This document shows positions 2,465 to 56,880 of a DNA stretch of 64,000 nt, in pieces. This DNA comes from Candidatus Taylorbacteria bacterium RIFCSPHIGHO2_01_FULL_46_22b. Lineage in GTDB: Bacteria; Patescibacteriota; Minisyncoccia; Phycocordibacterales; DSPV01. The notes under the pieces are model-generated. The model was not told the DNA's origin, did no database searches, and worked only from the letters and a program-made list of their open reading frames with translations. A program made the translations under genes and the position numbers. The stretch's first letter is position 1. Each line of letters begins with the position of its first letter. The stretch covers positions 3,371 through 67,370 of the forward strand of contig MHRF01000010.1 in NCBI GenBank assembly GCA_001820875.1, in the 5' to 3' direction.

Positions 2465-3628
2465 ATGTTATTCGATCTCAAAGTCATAAAGTCGGTACTC
2501 GATCAATTACAAGAGGAACGAGGTATCCCAAAAGAAAAGGTGCTCGAAGCCATCGCGATGGCGCTCGCGACTGCGTACAAAAAAGAGTACGGGAAAAAGG
2601 GGCAGATCGTCCGAGCAACATTTGATCCCGAAACTGGAAAAACTGATTTTTATCAGGTGAAAGTGGTCGTGGATCCAACAAAAGTAATTATGGAAGATGA
2701 GGAGATTGAAGAGGAAACAAAAAACGAAGCAGGAGATATAGAAAAAATCCGTTTCAATTCCGAACATCATATTCTCTTGGACGATGCGAAAAAAATAAAA
2801 GGAGACGCAAAAATTGATGACGAGATTGTCTTCCCACTTGAGACCAAGTCTGACTACGGCCGTATTGCTGCCCAGACTGCAAAACAAGTGATTATCCAAA
2901 AGATTCGCGAGGCCGAAAAAACTTCAGTCATGGAGGAATTCGGCAAGCGACAAGGTGAGGTCGTGAGCGGAACCGTTCAGCGTATTGAACGTGGGAACTT
3001 GTTTGTTGATATGGGACGCACCAACGCGATCTTGCCGTATGAAGAACAAATCCCTGGGGAACGCTACCGACAAGGAGAACGTATCCGTGCATACCTATAC
3101 AAAGTTGAAGAAACACCTAAAGGCGTGTTCCTCAAACTTTCCCGCGCGCATCCAAAATTCTTGGAGAAACTGTTCTCTATCGAAACACCTGAAATAGCTA
3201 ATGGAGTCGTGGAAATCAAAGCCATTGCCCGTGAAGCCGGCTCGCGATCAAAAGTTGCGGTGGTATCTCATGACTCACACGTTGACCCTGTTGGTTCACT
3301 CGTTGGCCAACGCGGTGTCCGTGTTTCGACTGTCATGTCAGAGCTCGGCGGAGAAAAGATAGACATTATTGAGTGGTCTGCCAATCCTAAGCAATTTATT
3401 GAAGACGCGCTCTCCCCTGCTCGAGTAATCTCGGTTGAAGTGATTGACGAAACACAAATGCAGGCTAAAGTAACGGTAGCAGGCGACCAGCAATCACTTG
3501 CTATCGGCAAAGGAGGACAAAATGTGCGCCTTGCAGCCAAACTCACCGGCTGGCGCATTGATATTCAATCGTCTGATGTGCCCGAAGGAGCAAACCCTTC
3601 TGAAGCTGATGGCGCAAAATCAGCGTAA
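2465..3628 (+). CDS. nusA: Transcription termination/antitermination factor NusA
   Basis: 387 aa. N-terminal MLFDLKVIKSVLDQLQEERGIPKEKVLEAIAMAL, an S1-like region and tandem KH regions (GQRGVRVSTVMSELGGEKIDIIEWS; IGKGGQNVRLAAKLTGWRIDI) match the NusA family. Confidence 0.9.
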   Translation: MLFDLKVIKSVLDQLQEERGIPKEKVLEAIAMALATAYKKEYGKKGQIVRATFDPETGKTDFYQVKVVVDPTKVIMEDEEIEEETKNEAGDIEKIRFNSEHHILLDDAKKIKGDAKIDDEIVFPLETKSDYGRIAAQTAKQVIIQKIREAEKTSVMEEFGKRQGEVVSGTVQRIERGNLFVDMGRTNAILPYEEQIPGERYRQGERIRAYLYKVEETPKGVFLKLSRAHPKFLEKLFSIETPEIANGVVEIKAIAREAGSRSKVAVVSHDSHVDPVGSLVGQRGVRVSTVMSELGGEKIDIIEWSANPKQFIEDALSPARVISVEVIDETQMQAKVTVAGDQQSLAIGKGGQNVRLAAKLTGWRIDIQSSDVPEGANPSEADGAKSA

Positions 3629-3661
3629 TTAATTTTTTATTACTTTTAAAACGTACCTATC

Positions 3662-5659
3662 ATGAACCCGTTCGTGTTATTTGCTCTCATTAGTTCAGTA
3701 ATCGCAATCATCTACGGTCTTATACTTGCATACAATATAAACAAGCAGCCTGCCGGAAATGCACGTATGCAGGAGATTTCGTCCGCAATCCGCGAAGGTG
3801 CAAAAGCCTATTTGAATCGCCAGTACAAAACGATTGGGGCAATCGCTATTATTCTCACACTCATTCTTGGCGCCTCGCTTGGTTTGAAAATGGCAGCTGG
3901 ATTCTTGGTCGGCGCCATTTTCTCAGCTCTCGCAGGCTATATTGGAATGAACGTCTCTGTTCGCGCAAACGTACGCACAGCTGAAGCCGCACGCAAAGGA
4001 TTGGGAGCAGCGCTCTCCCTTGCTTTCCGCGGAGGTGCAGTCACCGGACTCTTAGTCGTCGGACTTGCACTTCTTGGCGTAACTGGATTTTACGCGATAA
4101 CTGCAGATGTAACGGCACTCATTGGACTTGGATTCGGTGCTTCTCTTATCAGTGTCTTCGCGCGACTTGGAGGCGGAATTTTCACTAAAGCTGCCGACGT
4201 AGGAACTGACCTTGTGGGAAAAGTCGAAGCAGGAATTCCTGAAGATGACCCTCGAAATGCAGGAGTGATCGCAGACAACGTAGGAGACAATGTCGGCGAC
4301 TGCGCCGGCATGGCCGCGGACTTGTTTGAGACATATGCAGTTACCTCGGTAGCAACAATGCTTCTTGGTTCTCTGCTTTTCCCTGATTTTGTAAATGCCA
4401 TTCTCTATCCGCTCGTACTTGGCGCAGCCGCTATCATTGCGTCAATTATTGGTACATGGTTCGTGCGCCTCGGAAAAGGGAAAAATATCATGGGAGCTCT
4501 TTACAAAGGACTGATCGCGGCGGGAATTCTTTCGGCGATTGCCTTCTATCCAATCACTGCAATTCTGATGGAGGGAAATGGAGTGTACACAACACTTGAT
4601 CTCTTTATCGCCGCACTCACCGGACTCGTCGTCACTGGACTCTTGGTCTGGATCACCGAGTACTACACTGCAACCAAATACAAGCCAGTGCAATCAATTG
4701 CAGCCGCCTCTCTTTCCGGCCATGGCACCAATATTATCCAAGGTCTTGCTATCTCAATGAAATCGACAGCTCTTCCAGCTCTGGTAATTGTAGGCGGAAT
4801 TCTTATCACCTATCAATTTGCAGGTCTTTATGGAATCGCGGTTGCTGCCATGTCCATGCTTTCCATGGCAGGCATTATTGTCGCTATCGATGCCTATGGC
4901 CCTATCACTGACAATGCAGGGGGTATTGCTGAAATGGCGAATCTCCCGCAGGAAATACGCGACATCACTGATCCACTTGACGCTGTCGGCAACACCACCA
5001 AAGCCGTCACTAAAGGATATGCGATTGGATCGGCAGGATTGGCAGCACTCGTACTCTTTGCTTCGTACACACAAGAATTCGCCAATATGGGGAGCGAACT
5101 CACTTTTGCACTGGGTGATCCGAAAGTCCTTGTCGGATTGTTTATCGGAGGACTTCTCCCCTATTACTTTGCTGCACTCGCGATGGAAGCAGTCGGAAAA
5201 ACTGCCGGAGCAGTCGTCACTGAAGTACGCCGACAATTCAGAGAAATCAAAGGCATTATGGACGGAAGTGCAAAACCAGATTACGCACGAGCCGTTGATA
5301 TCGTCACTAGCGCTGCCATCAAACAAATGATTGTGCCTGCATTGATTCCAGTACTCGCACCAATTGTGGTCGGGTTTGTCCTAGGGCCAGTAGCACTCGG
5401 CGGATTGCTGGTGGGTTCTATCATCACCGGACTCTTTGTTGCAATCTCGATGACGTCAGGCGGTGGCGCATGGGATAACGCAAAAAAATACATTGAATCT
5501 GGTAACCATGGGGGAAAAGGTAGCGAGGCTCACAAAGCGGCCGTTACGGGAGACACCGTCGGTGATCCGTATAAAGATACGGCGGGGCCTGCGATTAATC
5601 CTATGATCAAGATATTAAATATTGTTGCTCTGCTTTTGGTAGGTCTTCTCGCCAAGTAA
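3662..5659 (+). CDS. hppA: Membrane-bound proton-translocating pyrophosphatase (H+-PPase)
   Basis: 665 aa, polytopic. Hallmark motifs [55 protein letters not shown] and [16 protein letters not shown]. Confidence 0.92.
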
Positions 5660-30140: not shown

Positions 30141-30167
30141 CGAAAAACATCCAGCGAATAGGAGGAT

Positions 30168-31505
30168 TTGCTGTATAATCTGAATTCTATGGATGTTATC
30201 AAAGGCCGAGTCATCAAAGGTGAGAACAAAGGTCGGTTGCTCGGATTTCCAACTGCCAATATTAAAATCTCCGAGGCAATTTCCGTCGAAACCGGAATTT
30301 ATGCTGGATACACTAAACTTAACGGTAAATCATACCAATCGGCTTTGTATATAAGGGGGGATAGAATACTAGAAGCTTTCATTTTGGATTTTTCAGGTGA
30401 TTTGTACGACCAAGAAGCGGAAGTGACGATACATAAAAAAATCAGGGAAAGATTGGAATTCAAAAATGATCAAGAGGCAAAAAGACAGATTGCAAAGGAT
30501 GTCTCGTATATTCAGGATTATTTCAAAAGTTTCGATACAAGAGAATCCAAAGAGAAACCGGGACATATGAAAAAATATTCTGCAACACTTAGAAAATGGT
30601 CTCCGTTTTTGGTTTTGCTAGCAGCAATGCTTTGGGCTTCCGATGCCCCTTTTCGATTACATCTCACCAAAGAATTAAGTAGTAATTTCATTGTGCTAGC
30701 TGAACATTTTGTCGATGTGTTATTCGTCTTGCCAATATTACTTTTTAATCTTTCGGGGCTCAAGAAACTCACCTACAAAGAGTGGTTAGCGATTCTTTTT
30801 ATCGCGATCGGTGGCAGTGCTCTGGCCTCGATTTCTTTTACCCAAGCTTTTCATTATCTTAATCCTTCAGTAGCCATCTTACTTCAAAAACTTCAGCCAT
30901 TTATCGCGATCGGTCTTGCTGGTGTTTTTTTAAAAGAGCGTTTCGGCCGACACTTCTGGCTTTGGACGGCGATTGCAATTTTTGGTGCTTACCTAATTTC
31001 GTTCCCAACGCTCATTCCGAAAACATATGCGGATGAAGCTTTTAATTTCAACCTCATTGGGATCTCGCTTGCTTTAGTAGCCGCTTTTTTCTGGGGCGCA
31101 TCCACAGTTTTCGGCAAATACGTGCTTAATAAAACCAATTTCAAAGTAATGACCTCGCTCCGTTTTATCGTTGCTTTTATCTTTTTGATTTTTCTAAATA
31201 TTGCCCAAAATTCTTTTCCGAAATTCTCAAGCATCACCAAAACTGACCTGTTGTTTATATTTATAATCGCCATCACTTCAGGCGTAATATCAATGTTCAT
31301 CTATTATCAAGGACTTGAGTATACTCGAGCTTCCGTTGCCACAATTGCCGAATTGGGTTTCCCGATCGCTGCAATCTTGGTAAATTGGTTGTTCATCAGC
31401 GGTGCGCTTTCATTGGTACAGCTTCTAGGTGTTTTGATTATACTCGGGGCAGTCTTTGGTCTCACCAAACACATCAACAAGCCAGAGATAATTCTGCAGA
31501 AATAG
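30168..31505 (+). CDS. Fusion protein: riboflavin kinase (flavokinase) domain + EamA/DMT-family permease
   Basis: N-terminal ~120 aa carry the flavokinase signature VIKGENKGRLLGFPTANI...YQSALYIRGD...EAFILDFSGDLYDQEAEVTIHKKIR. C-terminal ~300 aa are a 10-TM duplicated EamA fold. One continuous 445-aa ORF. Confidence 0.75.
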   Translation: MLYNLNSMDVIKGRVIKGENKGRLLGFPTANIKISEAISVETGIYAGYTKLNGKSYQSALYIRGDRILEAFILDFSGDLYDQEAEVTIHKKIRERLEFKNDQEAKRQIAKDVSYIQDYFKSFDTRESKEKPGHMKKYSATLRKWSPFLVLLAAMLWASDAPFRLHLTKELSSNFIVLAEHFVDVLFVLPILLFNLSGLKKLTYKEWLAILFIAIGGSALASISFTQAFHYLNPSVAILLQKLQPFIAIGLAGVFLKERFGRHFWLWTAIAIFGAYLISFPTLIPKTYADEAFNFNLIGISLALVAAFFWGASTVFGKYVLNKTNFKVMTSLRFIVAFIFLIFLNIAQNSFPKFSSITKTDLLFIFIIAITSGVISMFIYYQGLEYTRASVATIAELGFPIAAILVNWLFISGALSLVQLLGVLIILGAVFGLTKHINKPEIILQK

Positions 31506-31629
31506 GTTAGTGGCAAATTTCATTCAACGCCTCTTGAAAGCAAGGTGAAAAAATCTCGTCATTCTGTGCTCGGATATCACTTTTATATATGGGGAGACCT
31601 CGCATATACTGCGAGGTCTTTGCTTCACA

Positions 31630-32178: not shown

Positions 32179-32466
32179 ATGGACCAACAATTTGATGTCA
32201 CTGTCCTCATCACTCCTCGTGGAGTGGTACTTGATCCGCCAGCAGTAGCTGTGCTGAATGCATTGAAACACTTTGAAGCTGGGAAAATTGTCACGAAAGT
32301 ACACATGGGTAGATTCATCTCTCTCACGGTTACCGCGAAGAATCCGGAAGAGGCCAAGGCACAGGTAGATCAAATGTGCCGAGACAATCGTGCGCCAACA
32401 TTGATCTATAATCCGGTGATGGAAACCTTCAGGATCGAAACAGCTGTTCCAACACCTACCAAATGA
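32179..32466 (+). CDS. purS: PurS-like protein (FGAM synthase PurS subunit fold)
   Basis: Start MDQQFDVTVLITPRGVVLDPPAVAVLNALKHFEAGKIVTKVHMGRFISLTVTAKNPEEAKAQVDQMCRDN...PVMETFRIE, with an AGGAGAAAGGG RBS. TGA stop. Confidence 0.7.
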   Translation: MDQQFDVTVLITPRGVVLDPPAVAVLNALKHFEAGKIVTKVHMGRFISLTVTAKNPEEAKAQVDQMCRDNRAPTLIYNPVMETFRIETAVPTPTK

Positions 32467-52321: not shown

Positions 52322-52822
52322 TTATAGGGAAGCACTTATATCTCCAACGTACTTGAGTACTATGCGGCGCTGGCTTCCAGTACCTTCTGAATGGGTTTCA
52401 ATATCAGGAACCCCTTCGAAGAAGGTGTGTATGATCATCCTCTCATAAGAAGACATCGGATCCATCTCAACAGTTGTTTTAAATGATCGAGCTCGTTCAG
52501 CGAGAATCTGCGCTTTGGTACGTATCTCACCAAGCAGTCGATCGTGATAATCATTTACATCAACGTAAAAATCGACAGGATTTGCATCAGTTGAGACTGC
52601 ATTGAGCTTCTTGCCAACAATACGCTTTACCAAATGATTAATCGCTGAAATGTGGGCACCCCGTGTTCCTATAAGGATACTCGAATCAGAACTCTTAATA
52701 ACAAAAGCAAGTCGATCTCCTTGTTCAATCACAGTAATTTCCTGAAAAGGCACCCCCAAGCGATTGAGTAGTGTTTCTATAATTTGTCTTATGTGTGTCT
52801 GATGTTCCATATTATTTCCCAC
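52322..52822 (-). CDS. jag: Jag/KhpB-type KH + R3H RNA-binding protein
   Basis: 166 aa. KH-like region and R3H-like C-terminus (…GTGSQRRIVLKYV). Overlaps the yidC stop by 11 nt, the classic yidC-jag pair. Confidence 0.8.
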   Translation of the reverse strand: MGNNMEHQTHIRQIIETLLNRLGVPFQEITVIEQGDRLAFVIKSSDSSILIGTRGAHISAINHLVKRIVGKKLNAVSTDANPVDFYVDVNDYHDRLLGEIRTKAQILAERARSFKTTVEMDPMSSYERMIIHTFFEGVPDIETHSEGTGSQRRIVLKYVGDISASL

Positions 52823-53540
52823 TGCGAGCTTTAAATTGTTTTCGCACGAACCACTCCTGCACTATCGAGAAAACATTGTTTGTCGTCCAATAGAGGGCAA
52901 TAATACCTGACAGGTTGTAAACAATAAAGAAAGCCATGACGGGAAAGAGATATCTCATTTGTATACTCATTGACCGAGCGAGATTATCCTTAAGCGTTCC
53001 TGAACTTCCGGTTGATTTAGGTATAGGCATAGAAAACCGTATCTGAAAGTATTGGCTGATCGCGGTGAGAGCTGCCAACAGATAACTCTTCGCGGTGATA
53101 TCAAGAAGACCTAGAAACTGCATGTTTATTGCACTCGGAGCGTGCACAAAAGTATACAGTAGGCCATCATTAACCACGGGCAAGCCGCTCTTTAGAAAGA
53201 CGTGGTAAAGAGCAAAAATGATGGGAATTTGTATGAGGATCAACAAAAAACCTGAAAGGGGATTGAGTCCTTGAGTGCGGTAAAACTCCATAATTTTTGC
53301 AGCCTGTTGAGTTTTATCAGTAACCGTAGCCTTTATACGGTCAATATCCCCCTGCACATCCTTCAATTTCAGCTGGCTTTCTATAGAACGCCGCGAAAGA
53401 GGGTAGAGAATCAAACGAACAAGTATGGTGAATATAATGATAGCAATCCCAGCATCGTGCCCAGGAATACTGTTCATTAAAAAAATTAACCCATTGTATA
53501 GGGGTTGCGAAAACACCGTCGTAAAAAACCCTGGGTTCAT
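52812..53540 (-). CDS. yidC: Membrane protein insertase YidC (short, Gram-positive type)
   Basis: 242 aa. 5-TM YidC/Oxa1 core (…QPLYNGLIFLMNSIPGHDAGIAIIIFTILVRLILYPL…). Neighbours are rnpA and rpmH. Confidence 0.85.
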   Translation of the reverse strand: MNPGFFTTVFSQPLYNGLIFLMNSIPGHDAGIAIIIFTILVRLILYPLSRRSIESQLKLKDVQGDIDRIKATVTDKTQQAAKIMEFYRTQGLNPLSGFLLILIQIPIIFALYHVFLKSGLPVVNDGLLYTFVHAPSAINMQFLGLLDITAKSYLLAALTAISQYFQIRFSMPIPKSTGSSGTLKDNLARSMSIQMRYLFPVMAFFIVYNLSGIIALYWTTNNVFSIVQEWFVRKQFKARSGK

Positions 53541-53567
53541 AAGGTTATGGTAACGTACTCGGAGATG

Positions 53568-53903
53568 CTATTCAAGTTTGAGTCTCTTCATGGCTTCGGT
53601 GACAAGACCCACTACCAAAGGCTGTAATTTGATGTAAGAAGTGGGTGTCTCCTTGCGCAGGTATATAACACCCTCAAGTGTGGGGAGTGGGTGTATAGAG
53701 TGTAGGATCTCATATATCCGCCTCCGAAGAGTATTACGGGAAACAGCTAGGGGGGCTGCAACACTTGGAATGACTACAGAGAAACGGCCTCCAGCAGAGG
53801 ATCGAGAAAACCTCATAGATAGGCCATTATTAGTAACAACTAAGGAAGACCGTCGTACTATTTGAAAACGGCTCCGATCCAGACGCTTGGTGCGCCTAAG
53901 CAT
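53568..53903 (-). CDS. rnpA: Ribonuclease P protein component
   Basis: 111 aa. Basic N-terminus LRRTKRLDRSRFQIV..., RNR-like motif region. Sits downstream of rpmH. Confidence 0.85.
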   Translation of the reverse strand: MLRRTKRLDRSRFQIVRRSSLVVTNNGLSMRFSRSSAGGRFSVVIPSVAAPLAVSRNTLRRRIYEILHSIHPLPTLEGVIYLRKETPTSYIKLQPLVVGLVTEAMKRLKLE

Positions 53904-53905
53904 AC

Positions 53906-54037
53906 CTACAAAGCAAGCTTAGCTCGGCCAACTCTGCGGCGATTACGCAAAACTCTCCTTCCGTTAGAGGATTTAGTTCGAGTTAAGAATCCATGGGTTC
54001 TTGCTCGCTTTCTTTTCTTTGGTTGATAGGTTACAGA
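53906..54037 (-). CDS. rpmH: 50S ribosomal protein L34
   Basis: Start at the internal [44 protein letters not shown], the canonical L34 sequence. The longer track ORF is an upstream extension. Confidence 0.9.
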
Positions 54038-54202
54038 CATAAAAAGGAGTATAGCAAAAAAATAACCTTTGGCAACCATATCCTGTTTTTCCACTAAAAA
54101 ACACTATCCACATACTATAAACAACTTACGAACACATTCATTGTTGTTAGACAAGTTTGCTAACTATCCAAGCAGTATATAATGGTGCAACAAAACTAAT
54201 TT

Positions 54203-55570
54203 ATGCCCCCAATTATAGAAAACAAAAAACTGTGGGAAGGTGTCTTAGCTGAAATGGAATTAAGTGTCTCTAGAGCAAATTTCTCTACTTGGTTCAAAGA
54301 CACTCATGTGGTCAAACAACAAGACGGCGTTGTATATATAGGAGTCCCTAATACCTTTGTAAAGGACTGGCTGGCTAACAAATACCATAAGTCTATTTTA
54401 AGAATTCTGCGTAACTTCGGAGACTATATCCGAGGAATCGAATATCTCATCTCCACTGATGGAAGAAGTGTCAAAACAGGGAGAACCGAGGGAATTCTTG
54501 CGGGCGAACTTCCTCAAATGAACAAGGAATTACCGTTGCAAGAATATTACATAGATAGGGAGGATAATCTCAATCCTCGTTATACATTTGATTCGTTGAT
54601 CATTGGACCATTTAATGAGCTTGCCCATGCGGCCGCACAAGCAATTATTAAAAAACCGGGGTCTGTATATAACCCTCTCTTTGTCTATGGAGGTACAGGG
54701 CACGGAAAAACACACCTCATCCAGTCAGTAGGAAATCATATTAAAAATGCTTACCCAGATAAAAAGGTATATTACACGAGTTCAGAACGCTTCACTTCGG
54801 ATTTGGTTAGTTCCATACAAACACAGAAAGTCAGTCAGTTCAAAGAAAAGTACCGTAGGTATGATGTGTTTATCATGGATGATATACAGTTTTTGTCTAA
54901 TAAAGAAAAAACTCAAGAAGAGTTGTTTCATTTGTTTAACAACCTCTATGAAAACAATAAACAAATTGTTTTCTCCTCTGATAAACACCCTAACTTTATC
55001 CCTAACCTTGAAGAACGCTTGAAATCAAGGTTTTCTGCCGGAATGTTGGTTGACATACCTCAACCTGATCATGAGTCTCGACAAGCCATTATCCGAACAA
55101 AACTCGCACAACAAAATTATAATTCAGAAGCAGGGGTAATCGAGTACATCGCAACAAGTCTTGATGGAAACATCAGAGAGCTTGAAGGTATTATCAATAC
55201 CATTGTCTGCCAAGCCCAATTGAAAGGGAGGGAGTTGGGTCTTCTTGAAATTAAAAACCTTCTTAAAAATTCAAGTAAACCGAAGAAAAACATCTCAACA
55301 CAGGATTTGGTAAAACTAGTCGCGAATTTCTACAACATTGAAGAAGCCAGTGTGTATGAGAAAACTCGCCGAAAGGAGGTTGTGCGCCCACGACAACTTA
55401 TTATGTACCTTCTGCGGGAAGATTTTAATATCTCTTTTCCTTCTATTGGGCAAAAACTGGGGGGTAGAGACCACACCACAGTTATTCACTCTTGTGAAAA
55501 AATAAAAGGTGAATTAAAAACCAACCCAACCCTTTCCCAAGAGATCAACCAACTTCGAGCAATGATATAA
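54203..55570 (+). CDS. dnaA: Chromosomal replication initiator DnaA
   Basis: 455 aa. AAA+ Walker A GGTGHGKTHLIQSVGN, Walker B VFIMDDIQFL and C-terminal DNA-binding domain (…VRPRQLIMYLLRE…HTTVIHSCEKI). Confidence 0.93.
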   Translation: MPPIIENKKLWEGVLAEMELSVSRANFSTWFKDTHVVKQQDGVVYIGVPNTFVKDWLANKYHKSILRILRNFGDYIRGIEYLISTDGRSVKTGRTEGILAGELPQMNKELPLQEYYIDREDNLNPRYTFDSLIIGPFNELAHAAAQAIIKKPGSVYNPLFVYGGTGHGKTHLIQSVGNHIKNAYPDKKVYYTSSERFTSDLVSSIQTQKVSQFKEKYRRYDVFIMDDIQFLSNKEKTQEELFHLFNNLYENNKQIVFSSDKHPNFIPNLEERLKSRFSAGMLVDIPQPDHESRQAIIRTKLAQQNYNSEAGVIEYIATSLDGNIRELEGIINTIVCQAQLKGRELGLLEIKNLLKNSSKPKKNISTQDLVKLVANFYNIEEASVYEKTRRKEVVRPRQLIMYLLREDFNISFPSIGQKLGGRDHTTVIHSCEKIKGELKTNPTLSQEINQLRAMI

Positions 55571-55779
55571 CTTGTTAATAATATGTGAGTTGTTTGTGTG
55601 TATAAGAGTAAAATAAACAAAAATCCAAAAATACTCCACAGACAGTAAAGGGTTTTAAAAAATTATCCCCAATCTAACGTGAATTTTAATAACACAAAAA
55701 CGGCTTATTTTAAGGTTTTTTAAAACCTATACACATATCAACAGTTATAATCATAGTAATAATCTTTTAAATAAAAAAC
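55571..55779. promoter_or_regulatory. Putative oriC / DNA-unwinding region between dnaA and dnaN
   Basis: About 210-bp, strongly AT-rich spacer with near-consensus DnaA boxes (aattatcccca; tactccaca). Further box-like sites upstream of dnaA (ctatccaca at about 54105). Gene orientation switches strand here. Confidence 0.4.
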
Positions 55780-56880
55780 ATGAAAGTCGAGTGTGTAAAA
55801 ACAAAAATTTCTGGAGTGATTTCAAAAATTGAACGTATCGCTGGAAAAAATCAACATCTTCCGATATTGAATTGTTTTTTACTTGAAGCTATTGGTGGTG
55901 AACTTTCTGTTAGTGTTACAAATCTTGATTTAGGGGTAGTGGTAAAATTACCAGTTCGTGTGTCTGTTGAGGGTCGTGTGGCAGTCCCCGCTGTTGTTTT
56001 TGCAGGTGTTTTATCACAACTTCCTGAAGATAGTAATGTTGTTTTTGAACTTATAGACACTAATTTTGTTGTTTCAACCAAACACACAAAAACAAACATT
56101 AAAACCCTTCCTACTGATGATTTTCCAACAATACCAATATCAAAAGAAGGAGCTCGTGTGGTGTTGTTGGGAGCGGATTTAATAAAAGGACTTCAGTTGG
56201 TTGCGTATAGTTCAGCGACATCTTCAATGAAACCTGAACTGTCTAGTGTTGTGGTGCGAGGAGATCATAAAGATCTTGTTTTTGTTGCCACAGATTCTTT
56301 TCGTTTAGCTGAAAAAAAGATTCCAATGAAGAAGGGGGTTTTGTTTGATAATATCCTACTCCCTTTTAAAAATGTTGCCGATATAACAAAAATATTTGAG
56401 GGATATCGTGGGGAAATAGAACTCTCAATTCATAAAAACCAAATTGTTCTACTTGGGGGTGGTTTTTGTGTGGTTTCGAGAGTTGTTGAAGGTAACTTCC
56501 CAGATTATCAGCAGATTATCCCTAAAGGAGCAACAACAGAAGGAATTGTTTTAAAACAAGACTTGGTTTCTGCACTTAAACTGGCGAATATTTTTTCAGG
56601 AACTTTTCATGAAATTTCTTTTCATATTACACCGAATAAAAAACTATGTGAGTTGAGTTCTGAAAGTGGGCATGTGGGGAAAAATGTCATGCGGCTTGAT
56701 GCTGTGGTAAAGGGTGAGGAGATTTCAGTAAGTTTCAACCATCGGTATATTATGGATTGCTTCCAATCTATTTCAGGAGACAGCGTCTCTCTTAATTTTA
56801 ACGGACCACACAAACCACTCGTGATTCGGAGTGCGGGGGACAGTTCCTTCACTTACTTGGTGATGCCAATGAACAAATAA
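55780..56880 (+). CDS. dnaN: DNA polymerase III beta sliding clamp
   Basis: 366 aa. Three-domain clamp pattern. Conserved dnaA-dnaN synteny. C-terminal LVMPMN(K) motif. Confidence 0.9.
   Translation: MKVECVKTKISGVISKIERIAGKNQHLPILNCFLLEAIGGELSVSVTNLDLGVVVKLPVRVSVEGRVAVPAVVFAGVLSQLPEDSNVVFELIDTNFVVSTKHTKTNIKTLPTDDFPTIPISKEGARVVLLGADLIKGLQLVAYSSATSSMKPELSSVVVRGDHKDLVFVATDSFRLAEKKIPMKKGVLFDNILLPFKNVADITKIFEGYRGEIELSIHKNQIVLLGGGFCVVSRVVEGNFPDYQQIIPKGATTEGIVLKQDLVSALKLANIFSGTFHEISFHITPNKKLCELSSESGHVGKNVMRLDAVVKGEEISVSFNHRYIMDCFQSISGDSVSLNFNGPHKPLVIRSAGDSSFTYLVMPMNK

Follow-up and report, generated by a model that had tools for sequence, protein, structure and literature searches.

Why would a riboflavin kinase and a membrane permease be encoded by one gene? 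The question arises from a 64,000-nt stretch of contig MHRF01000010.1 (hereafter, the window), which comes from a Candidatus Taylorbacteria bacterium, a groundwater member of the Patescibacteria with a tiny genome, and in which one plus-strand gene joins a predicted ATP-dependent riboflavin kinase to a permease of the drug/metabolite transporter (DMT) family. We consider, with a probability of about 0.72, that the fused protein imports riboflavin and phosphorylates it immediately to flavin mononucleotide (FMN), so that uptake is coupled to metabolic trapping. The gene and its parts are located in the window as follows.

30189..31505, plus strand: fused riboflavin kinase and DMT permease gene, 438 aa from its ATG (open reading frame list, sequence, and Pfam)
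30198..30524, plus strand: Flavokinase domain, the ATP-dependent riboflavin kinase module (PF01687, aa 11-119)
30243..30260, plus strand: GFPTAN motif, read from the sequence and aligning with GFPTAN of 1mrz and 5a88
30372..30374, plus strand: Glu69 (Glu62 in ATG numbering), predicted catalytic base, aligning with E268 of the C. ammoniagenes flavin adenine dinucleotide (FAD) synthetase
30540..30563, plus strand: linker DTRESKEK (in the stretch SFDTRESKEKPGH), predicted local distance difference test score (pLDDT) below 50 at residues 118-125
30567..30569, plus strand: internal ATG (Met134), ancestral permease start, GenBank start, and possible secondary initiation site
30567..31502, plus strand: DMT/EamA permease with 10 transmembrane helices and two EamA repeats (PF00892, hydropathy, AlphaFold, and fold matches)

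A preliminary description of the window had reported here a single 445-aa open reading frame (ORF) with an N-terminal flavokinase domain, marked by the sequence GRLLGFPTAN, followed by a duplicated EamA fold of 10 transmembrane helices, and all three claims held. The longest ORF (30168..31505, plus strand) runs unbroken for 445 aa from a TTG codon to the TAG stop codon at 31503-31505, neither a frameshift nor a stop codon was found at the junction of the two halves (30520-30566), and both PF01687 and PF00892 were matched well above their Pfam cutoffs. The start codon is the one point in need of revision: the form from TTG 30168 exists, being used by one cluster member (P0327), while most gene calls in JGI, ENA, and Logan begin at the likelier true start, ATG 30189, for a protein of 438 aa (P0001, 100% identical).

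The kinase half is well defined. PF01687, whose cutoff is 19.6 bits, was matched over profile positions 7-124 of 124 with 86.9 bits (E 1.6e-24), and the domain aligns with residues 162-280 of T. maritima RibF (1mrz) and with the kinase module of the C. ammoniagenes enzyme (5a88). The full GRLLGFPTAN stretch lies at nt 30231-30260. It holds the PTAN motif, a conserved active-site element of the riboflavin kinases RibF and RFK, whose residues T22 and N24 (ATG numbering) are invariant in 61 family kinases. Glu69, which is also invariant in the 61 sequences, lies in the context QRSVESFVLD and aligns with DRILEAFILD around E268, the catalytic residue of the C. ammoniagenes FAD synthetase. Aligned with 60 related kinases, the window protein keeps every column that is 100% conserved. 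The AlphaFold model places beta-barrel strands at residues 2-86 and a long helix at residues 94-121, that is, the six-stranded barrel with a C-terminal helix of a riboflavin kinase, and Foldseek matched the model to the riboflavin kinase modules 5a89, 1s4m, and 1q9s, with a target template-modelling score (TM score) of about 0.68 for the stand-alone modules 5a89 and 1q9s. ATP:riboflavin 5'-phosphotransferase activity is predicted for this domain. The NCBIfam RibF model TIGR00083 was matched at positions 171-289 of 290, the C-terminal kinase module only; since the RibF models are matched in this part alone, the fused protein has no FMN adenylyltransferase module, and Pfam likewise detected no FAD_syn domain in it.

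The permease half scored 131.3 bits with PF00892, whose cutoff is 28.2 (two stretches, E 3.8e-38), and the hydropathy profile gives 10 transmembrane helices with 15 Lys and Arg residues on the inside loops and termini vs 4 on the outside. The AlphaFold model, built on 77 sequences (mean pLDDT 89.6, pTM 0.77), consists of the beta-barrel, the long helix, an 8-residue low-confidence linker, and 10 membrane-length helices (12 helical elements by DSSP), and Foldseek matched it to the DMT proteins YddG (5i20) and LicB (7paf), the latter with a TM score of 0.80, and TPT (5y78). This half carries the signature of its family, LLQKLQP, LKE, AAxxWGxST, R, YYxGL, and ELxFP. According to hydropathy and the positive-inside rule, both termini of the permease are cytoplasmic, which puts the kinase on the side of the membrane where ATP is found and makes the attachment of a kinase at either end topologically sound.

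On this arrangement, the riboflavin kinase would sit on the cytoplasmic N-terminus of a 10-helix DMT permease that imports riboflavin, and the riboflavin released at the inner face would be phosphorylated at once to FMN. Uptake would thereby become effectively irreversible and concentrative, as the permease presumably does not carry FMN.

If the two activities belong together, they should also be found together where the genes are separate, and this is what the relatives of the permease show. We scanned one genome per species and obtained 80 loci, nearly all labelled Patescibacteria and two labelled Bacteroidota or Ignavibacteriaceae, in which the position of the flavokinase was classified with profile hidden Markov models (HMMs) built for this analysis. 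The kinase was adjacent (within 2 kb) or fused in 62 of them, mostly directly upstream, with the following distribution.

44 of 80 loci: flavokinase at most 110 nt upstream, same strand
2 of 80 loci: flavokinase 111-400 nt upstream
12 of 80 loci: flavokinase 0.8-1.8 kb upstream
2 of 80 loci: flavokinase fused to the permease
2 of 80 loci: flavokinase convergent, just downstream

Other genes accompany the pair (all counts within 4 kb). The FAD-dependent thioredoxin reductase TrxB was found in 18 of the 80 loci, usually just upstream of the kinase, and an aldo-keto reductase preceded the kinase in 12. A CTP_transf_like protein of about 135 aa with the motif GTFDxLHxGH was present in 24 loci, in most cases close behind the permease gene, and adjoins the permease or kinase in, for example, L056, L069, L072, L073, L077, L087, L090, L092, and L093; it also occurs in seven loci from metagenomes (L101-L106 and L152). 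Its matches to FAD_syn and to the N-terminal part of RibF are weak and its family assignment is generic only; we treat it as a putative FMN adenylyltransferase in these lineages.

The 0.8-1.8-kb gaps of the 12 loci mentioned above are mostly occupied by riboflavin synthase and/or lumazine synthase, and each of these enzymes was found in 17 of the 80 loci (within 4 kb), with representatives passing the NCBIfam equivalog cutoffs. This brings up a rival explanation, namely that the permease imports a late precursor (6,7-dimethyl-8-ribityllumazine or 5-amino-6-ribitylaminouracil) which RibH and RibE convert before the kinase acts, so that the linkage would reflect membership in one pathway. It is true that ribE and ribH lie between or beside kinase and permease without ribA, ribB, or ribD in those 17 species loci, that such clusters recur (L033, L044, L056, L064, L067, L079, L080, L082, L092, L096, L115, L126, and L131; ribH only in L137), and that in L096 an FMN riboswitch controls a [permease-kinase]-ribE-ribH operon. 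These clusters represent either a partial pathway or one whose remaining genes lie elsewhere in the genome. Nevertheless, across about 250 loci the fusion partner is the kinase, whose substrate is riboflavin, and never RibE or RibH; 45 of the 62 kinase-linked species loci have neither ribE nor ribH within 4 kb, nor was either detected in the 64 kb of the window; and in L101-L106 a riboswitch stands on the permease alone in loci without ribE or ribH. Position in a rib operon is also known for genuine riboflavin importers, as with ribM in ribBMAH. The occurrence of rfnT in rib operons is cited in PMC5397151. We therefore regard precursor import as improbable.

In the window itself, RibE, RibH, the CTP-transferase, and TrxB were not detected with HMMs, and crude motif regexes, a weak test, found no RibA, RibB, RibD, RibF-N, or RibK in the 64 kb. 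The remark of the preliminary description that no rib genes are in view holds within the 64-kb window only. Since the cluster often includes ribE and ribH in relatives, auxotrophy of this genome is no more than a supposition.

The regulation of the permease genes points in the same direction as their neighborhood. With Rfam model RF00050 (gathering score 66.2; weaker or shortened matches reported at E 1e-8 or better), FMN riboswitches were found directly upstream of permease genes in at least six distinct loci at or above the gathering score.

L096 (identical in L097): 98.1 bits, before the [permease-kinase]-ribE-ribH operon
L101/L102: 97.4 bits, gene order CTP_transf_like, kinase, riboswitch, permease
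L106: 88.5 bits, gene order CTP_transf_like, kinase, riboswitch, permease
L103: 87.7 bits, gene order CTP_transf_like, kinase, riboswitch, permease
L104/L105: 82.0 bits, gene order CTP_transf_like, kinase, riboswitch, permease
L178: 66.9 bits, at the gathering score of 66.2
L138: 59.5 bits, below the gathering score, E 1e-8 or better
L174: 54.1 bits, riboswitch running into the contig end
L107: 48.4 bits, riboswitch running into the contig end
L141: 48.4 bits, below the gathering score, E 1e-8 or better

Those of L101-L106 lie between the kinase and permease genes, which means that the permease itself is under riboswitch control, and the permeases of L101, L103, L104, L106, and L107 are 52-57% identical to the permease half of the window protein (E 1e-102 to 1e-112). 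FMN-riboswitch control or clustering with rib genes is how RibU, RibM, RibN, ImpX, RfnT, and RibXY were recognized before experimental confirmation (PMC4418817). By this operational criterion (riboswitch or clustering), the family would count as riboflavin transporters, and the window gene itself contributes the kinase fusion only.

The same riboswitches bear on the direction of transport. The kinase fusion alone leaves this direction unfixed, and many characterized DMT/EamA proteins export their substrates, including those behind the NCBIfam match to YedA and the fold match to YddG, so one may picture a flavin exporter in which FMN is formed by the kinase beside the permease opening, and FMN or riboflavin leaves the cell, for example as an extracellular electron shuttle or for cross-feeding. 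FMN riboswitches, however, generally switch genes off at high FMN, which suits genes of supply and is the opposite of what overflow export would need. Furthermore, the neighboring genes use or make the intracellular cofactor (TrxB and the candidate FMN adenylyltransferase downstream), and a reduced genome without rib genes in 64 kb is an unlikely donor of flavins. Export is thus quite improbable in our view, and the import of riboflavin remains the better account of this permease.

A further line of evidence comes from kinase fusions of other kinds. A full search of 1.84 billion cluster representatives (50% identity) gave 220 matches at E 1e-30 or better, and 13 of the best 150 representatives (409-435 aa) have the reverse order, with the permease first and a flavokinase at the C-terminus, which Pfam confirmed in all eight that were tested. 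In P0291, the domain at the C-terminus of the permease is instead PF01982 (E 3.3e-29), the archaeal CTP-dependent riboflavin kinase, whose fold is unrelated and which is not homologous to PF01687; three more divergent fusions of this type are 47-49% identical to P0291, and their stand-alone relatives are named from DPANN archaea and FCB-group bacteria. On a contig of Aenigmatarchaeota (DPANN), an RbkR-type gene (MarR_2 helix-turn-helix plus PF01982) ends 5 nt before a homologue of the permease; RbkR is an archaeal riboflavin kinase and a regulator of riboflavin genes (PMC5397151). Among 80 further loci from a metagenome scan, permease and kinase share one ORF in 28, lie as separate genes in this order in 3, and follow the order kinase, then permease in 17. 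One metagenome contig of 167 kb (L177) carries two permease-kinase fusion genes in tandem (1447-2730 and 2717-4027).

Taken together, four independent kinds of genomic evidence support the family as a candidate: the genes are linked in operons, they fused repeatedly and in both orientations, a kinase without homology to the first was fused as well, and FMN riboswitches precede some of the permeases. The coupling of uptake to phosphorylation that the preliminary description had proposed is the best-supported reading, which we infer from the kinase linkage in 62 of 80 loci, the fusions at both termini, the two unrelated kinases, the RbkR neighbor, and the riboswitches. The permease family would then comprise widespread candidate riboflavin transporters of candidate phyla radiation (CPR) bacteria, DPANN archaea, and some FCB bacteria, of which the window protein is a rare variant with an N-terminal kinase.

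How did this variant arise? The permease family is strongly conserved in Patescibacteria, with 60-82% identity to the window permease half and a mean column identity of 67%. Most members (295-330 aa) stand alone and align with the window protein from Met134 onward. The nearest permeases, P0002 (82%) and P0003 (78%), are separate proteins, as are the nearest kinases, P0121-P0123 (66-68%, 116-119 aa). A search with the N-terminal 210 aa also returned stand-alone kinases as the nearest; its word-based candidate step missed even P0001, so it yields no count of fusions. At the locus of P0003 (L013), the TAA of the kinase gene, three codons, and the ATG of the permease gene follow in the same frame with a gap of 9 nt, and the loss of such a single stop codon would fuse the two genes. 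We suggest that the fusion came about in this way, by loss of one stop codon between adjacent same-frame genes of the flavokinase-permease operon conserved in Patescibacteria; compared with these separate genes, the window fusion appears to be a recent merger in this Candidatus Taylorbacteria lineage, whose linker would derive from the former intergenic spacer. Window linker and L013 spacer differ in both length and sequence.

The preliminary description had called for a survey of related genomes, and there the fusion proved to be real and recurrent. N-terminally fused proteins fall into three lineages (the window protein with P0001; P0043, P0050, L045, and L046; and P0014), which are 58-62% identical to one another, and each is closer to split genes than to the other two, so the N-terminal fusion arose at least three times. 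It is nonetheless rare: 2 species loci out of 80 have it, and so do 4 distinct proteins out of 229.

It may be asked whether the fusion functions as such, or whether the two halves act separately through initiation at Met134, or the joining is a neutral or slightly deleterious accident, even of a permease with a flavin-unrelated substrate. The GenBank record OHA17997.1 (P0326) gives only a 312-aa "EamA domain-containing protein" that equals window aa 134-445, an AAGAG lies 12 nt before ATG 30567, the N-terminal form is as rare as just described, and the linker is unstructured. The short form looks like a choice of start codon; the GenBank annotation conceals the fusion and leaves the kinase half unannotated or hidden in the deposited record. 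With no stop codon in between, however, translation from 30189 must give the fused protein, and the kinase would otherwise have no translation terminator. The product is identical across seven assemblies with its kinase motifs intact, the independent recurrence in both orientations and with a second kinase fold argues for selection, and a flavin-unrelated substrate is hard to square with the riboswitch and operon evidence. We give little credence to a fusion without function. That an error of assembly or sequencing joined two genes by a missing stop codon or an indel, as a single wrong base could mimic where the closest relative has both genes in frame one stop apart, is hardly credible and was rejected, because the identical 438-aa product occurs on at least 15 contigs, seven of them placed in as many different ENA assemblies, where the order of genes is that of the window (PNPase, a 309-aa gene, a DksA-type zinc finger, ComM-like, the fusion, a 128-aa gene, PurS, a LysM-M23 peptidase, and UvrD), and because the linker is not one base change away from the L013 spacer.

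Several observations weigh against riboflavin import with trapping, and they should be set beside the evidence above. The intact ORF, its domains, folds, and catalytic motifs, the topology, the linkage counts, the fusions, and the riboswitches are shown by the data, whereas the identity of the substrate (riboflavin), the inward direction of its transport, the exclusion of FMN, and a gain in capture from the tether are what we infer. DMT substrates are diverse and several DMT members are exporters; the closest solved homologue by sequence profile is the choline transporter LicB (E 2.5e-11), and NCBIfam returned for the permease half only generic DMT matches below cutoff, the YedA exporter among them. 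Neither Rfam nor our own covariance model, which was built from only 5 of the family riboswitch sequences, detected an FMN riboswitch at the window gene, where the upstream intergenic space, at only about 48 nt, leaves too little room for one; by Rfam, none was found in 53 of the 80 species loci, and by our own model none in any of the 80. No flavokinase was found in 18 of the 80 species loci (4 of which have less than 900 nt of upstream sequence), and the ribE and ribH genes of many clusters leave room for a precursor as the substrate. Additionally, a free permease may be made by internal initiation at Met134, the GenBank start.

Beyond uptake and trapping, a stronger version can be drawn, which we regard as doubtful. 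In this version, riboflavin would pass from the inward-open cavity straight into the active site of the kinase, and the tethered kinase-permease would be a true device of vectorial phosphorylation for a vitamin, resembling group translocation; this DMT clade and the CTP_transf_like protein, as a new FMN adenylyltransferase, would form the main flavin-salvage module of CPR and DPANN, reached convergently with two unrelated kinases.

Compared with known systems, the proposed import and trapping follow the logic of the Pnu facilitators (PnuC-NadR, PnuT-thiamine kinase, and PnuX/RibM), in which a vitamin enters by facilitated diffusion and is trapped by a co-located kinase, the phosphorylated forms not being transported (PMC5749112). 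The Pnu proteins have the Pnu/SWEET-like fold rather than that of the DMT family, and their kinase is separate, whereas here a covalent bond joins the kinase to one end or the other of the permease, according to lineage. RibN resembles the window permease in fold class, size, and proposed substrate; it has about 296 aa and is a DMT family transporter by annotation (PMC10012899), and it was identified as a riboflavin importer via the FMN riboswitch (PMC4418817). By description, the level at which we compared it with the window family, RibN differs in being reported only from Proteobacteria (alpha and gamma) and never fused to a kinase (PMC4418817). An FMN riboswitch precedes ribN in alpha-Proteobacteria (PMC4418817), whereas the window gene lacks a riboswitch and belongs to the Patescibacteria; other members of its family do have the riboswitch. 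ImpX, compared likewise by description, is also a single-component permease that was found through FMN riboswitch control and complements a riboflavin auxotroph, and it occurs in Fusobacteria, Firmicutes, and Proteobacteria; it differs as an unfused, distant homologue of eukaryotic RFT2 that is present only in riboflavin prototrophs (PMC4418817). LicB of S. pneumoniae (7b0k/7paf) shares the 10-helix DMT architecture and is the closest solved structure by sequence profile and one of the best by fold (TM score 0.80), but its identity is about 19-20%, its substrate is choline, and it has neither a kinase domain nor a flavin-gene context.

On the kinase side, the window protein shares ancestry with the bifunctional RibF, the type I FAD synthetase: its N-terminal domain corresponds to the C-terminal kinase module there, with PTAN, the catalytic Glu, and the beta-barrel in common, while the window protein is without the FMN adenylyltransferase module of RibF and has a membrane permease as its fusion partner. 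RbkR offers a precedent for a riboflavin kinase domain fused to a function in flavin homeostasis (PMC5397151), but its kinase is the CTP-dependent PF01982 and its partner a DNA-binding winged helix-turn-helix, as opposed to the PF01687 kinase and the permease of the window protein. In the literature searched, we came across neither a kinase-permease fusion nor a riboflavin transporter from Patescibacteria, and the supposition that this architecture had not been described before agrees with that search. The riboflavin transporter families covered in PMC4418817 and PMC5397151 include none reported from CPR or DPANN. Database entries name the family members no more precisely than "DMT-like permease" or "EamA family transporter."

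Most Patescibacteria (CPR) and DPANN archaea have yet to be cultured, and scavenging is assumed to supply their cofactors. If the proposed function is true, the family would be a new family of riboflavin transporters and a concrete candidate for this role in CPR and DPANN, the fused proteins would be natural transporter-kinase chimeras for the study of metabolic trapping, and metabolic models as well as the design of media for the cultivation of CPR and DPANN would be improved. Our analysis also flags a candidate for the missing FMN adenylyltransferase.

Some further observations concern the family outside the main pattern. Close homologues of the permease (about 295-305 aa) occur on contigs labelled Bacteroidota, Ignavibacteriaceae, and Melioribacteraceae and in a 4.7-Mb genome (L043, L049, L098, and L099). 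No kinase or riboswitch was found near these four genes, and the free-living FCB-group loci L098 and L099 speak neither for nor against the proposed function; the permeases may have spread horizontally, or their regulation may differ there. In L021, L022, L025, L035, and L039, the permease lies inside the ribosomal-protein spc operon, directly after L5 and with L24 before it (both identified by eye), at about 4001-4915 or equivalent and without a kinase nearby; small genes of about 131, 181, and 115 aa follow it in L025, L035, and L039. Such a position is unusual for a transporter and suggests high constitutive expression of the permease. Endonuclease/exonuclease/phosphatase-family proteins of about 250 aa stand beside the flavin cluster in L033, L034, L038, L044, L083, and L084, and metallo-beta-lactamase (MBL)-fold proteins are frequent there too; one of these, or the aldo-keto reductase, may conceivably fill a missing step of the riboflavin pathway, such as that of the ARPP phosphatase. 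Genes of 151-153 aa between trxB and the kinase (L001 and L005) were considered as pathway candidates and dropped, as they are homologous neither to each other nor to the 153-aa gene of L003.

At the fused gene itself, only 2 nt separate an AGGAGG (30160-30165) from TTG 30168, and 23 nt separate it from ATG 30189. A perfect TATAAT (30174-30179) ends 9 nt short of ATG 30189 and makes a leaderless transcript conceivable, although the consensus promoter scan made no call there; in the promoter and terminator scans around the fused gene, no score rose above that of shuffled sequence. In the space that separates the fusion gene from the convergent 128-aa gene, an inverted repeat of 10 bp without mismatches (31595-31619: AGACCTCGCA, loop TATAC, TGCGAGGTCT) may be a bidirectional terminator, which the terminator scan did not call because its T run is short.

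Farther along, a 95-aa PurS gene (about 32179-32466, plus strand; PF02700 as annotated in L006, the identical locus) is isolated between convergent genes, neither purL nor purQ being in its vicinity. At 52812-56880, rnpA-like and yidC-like genes on the minus strand are followed by genes of 455 and 366 aa resembling dnaA and dnaN, as judged by eye. Because of this set of genes, recognized from their N-terminal sequences and their order, the window probably spans the region of the chromosomal origin.

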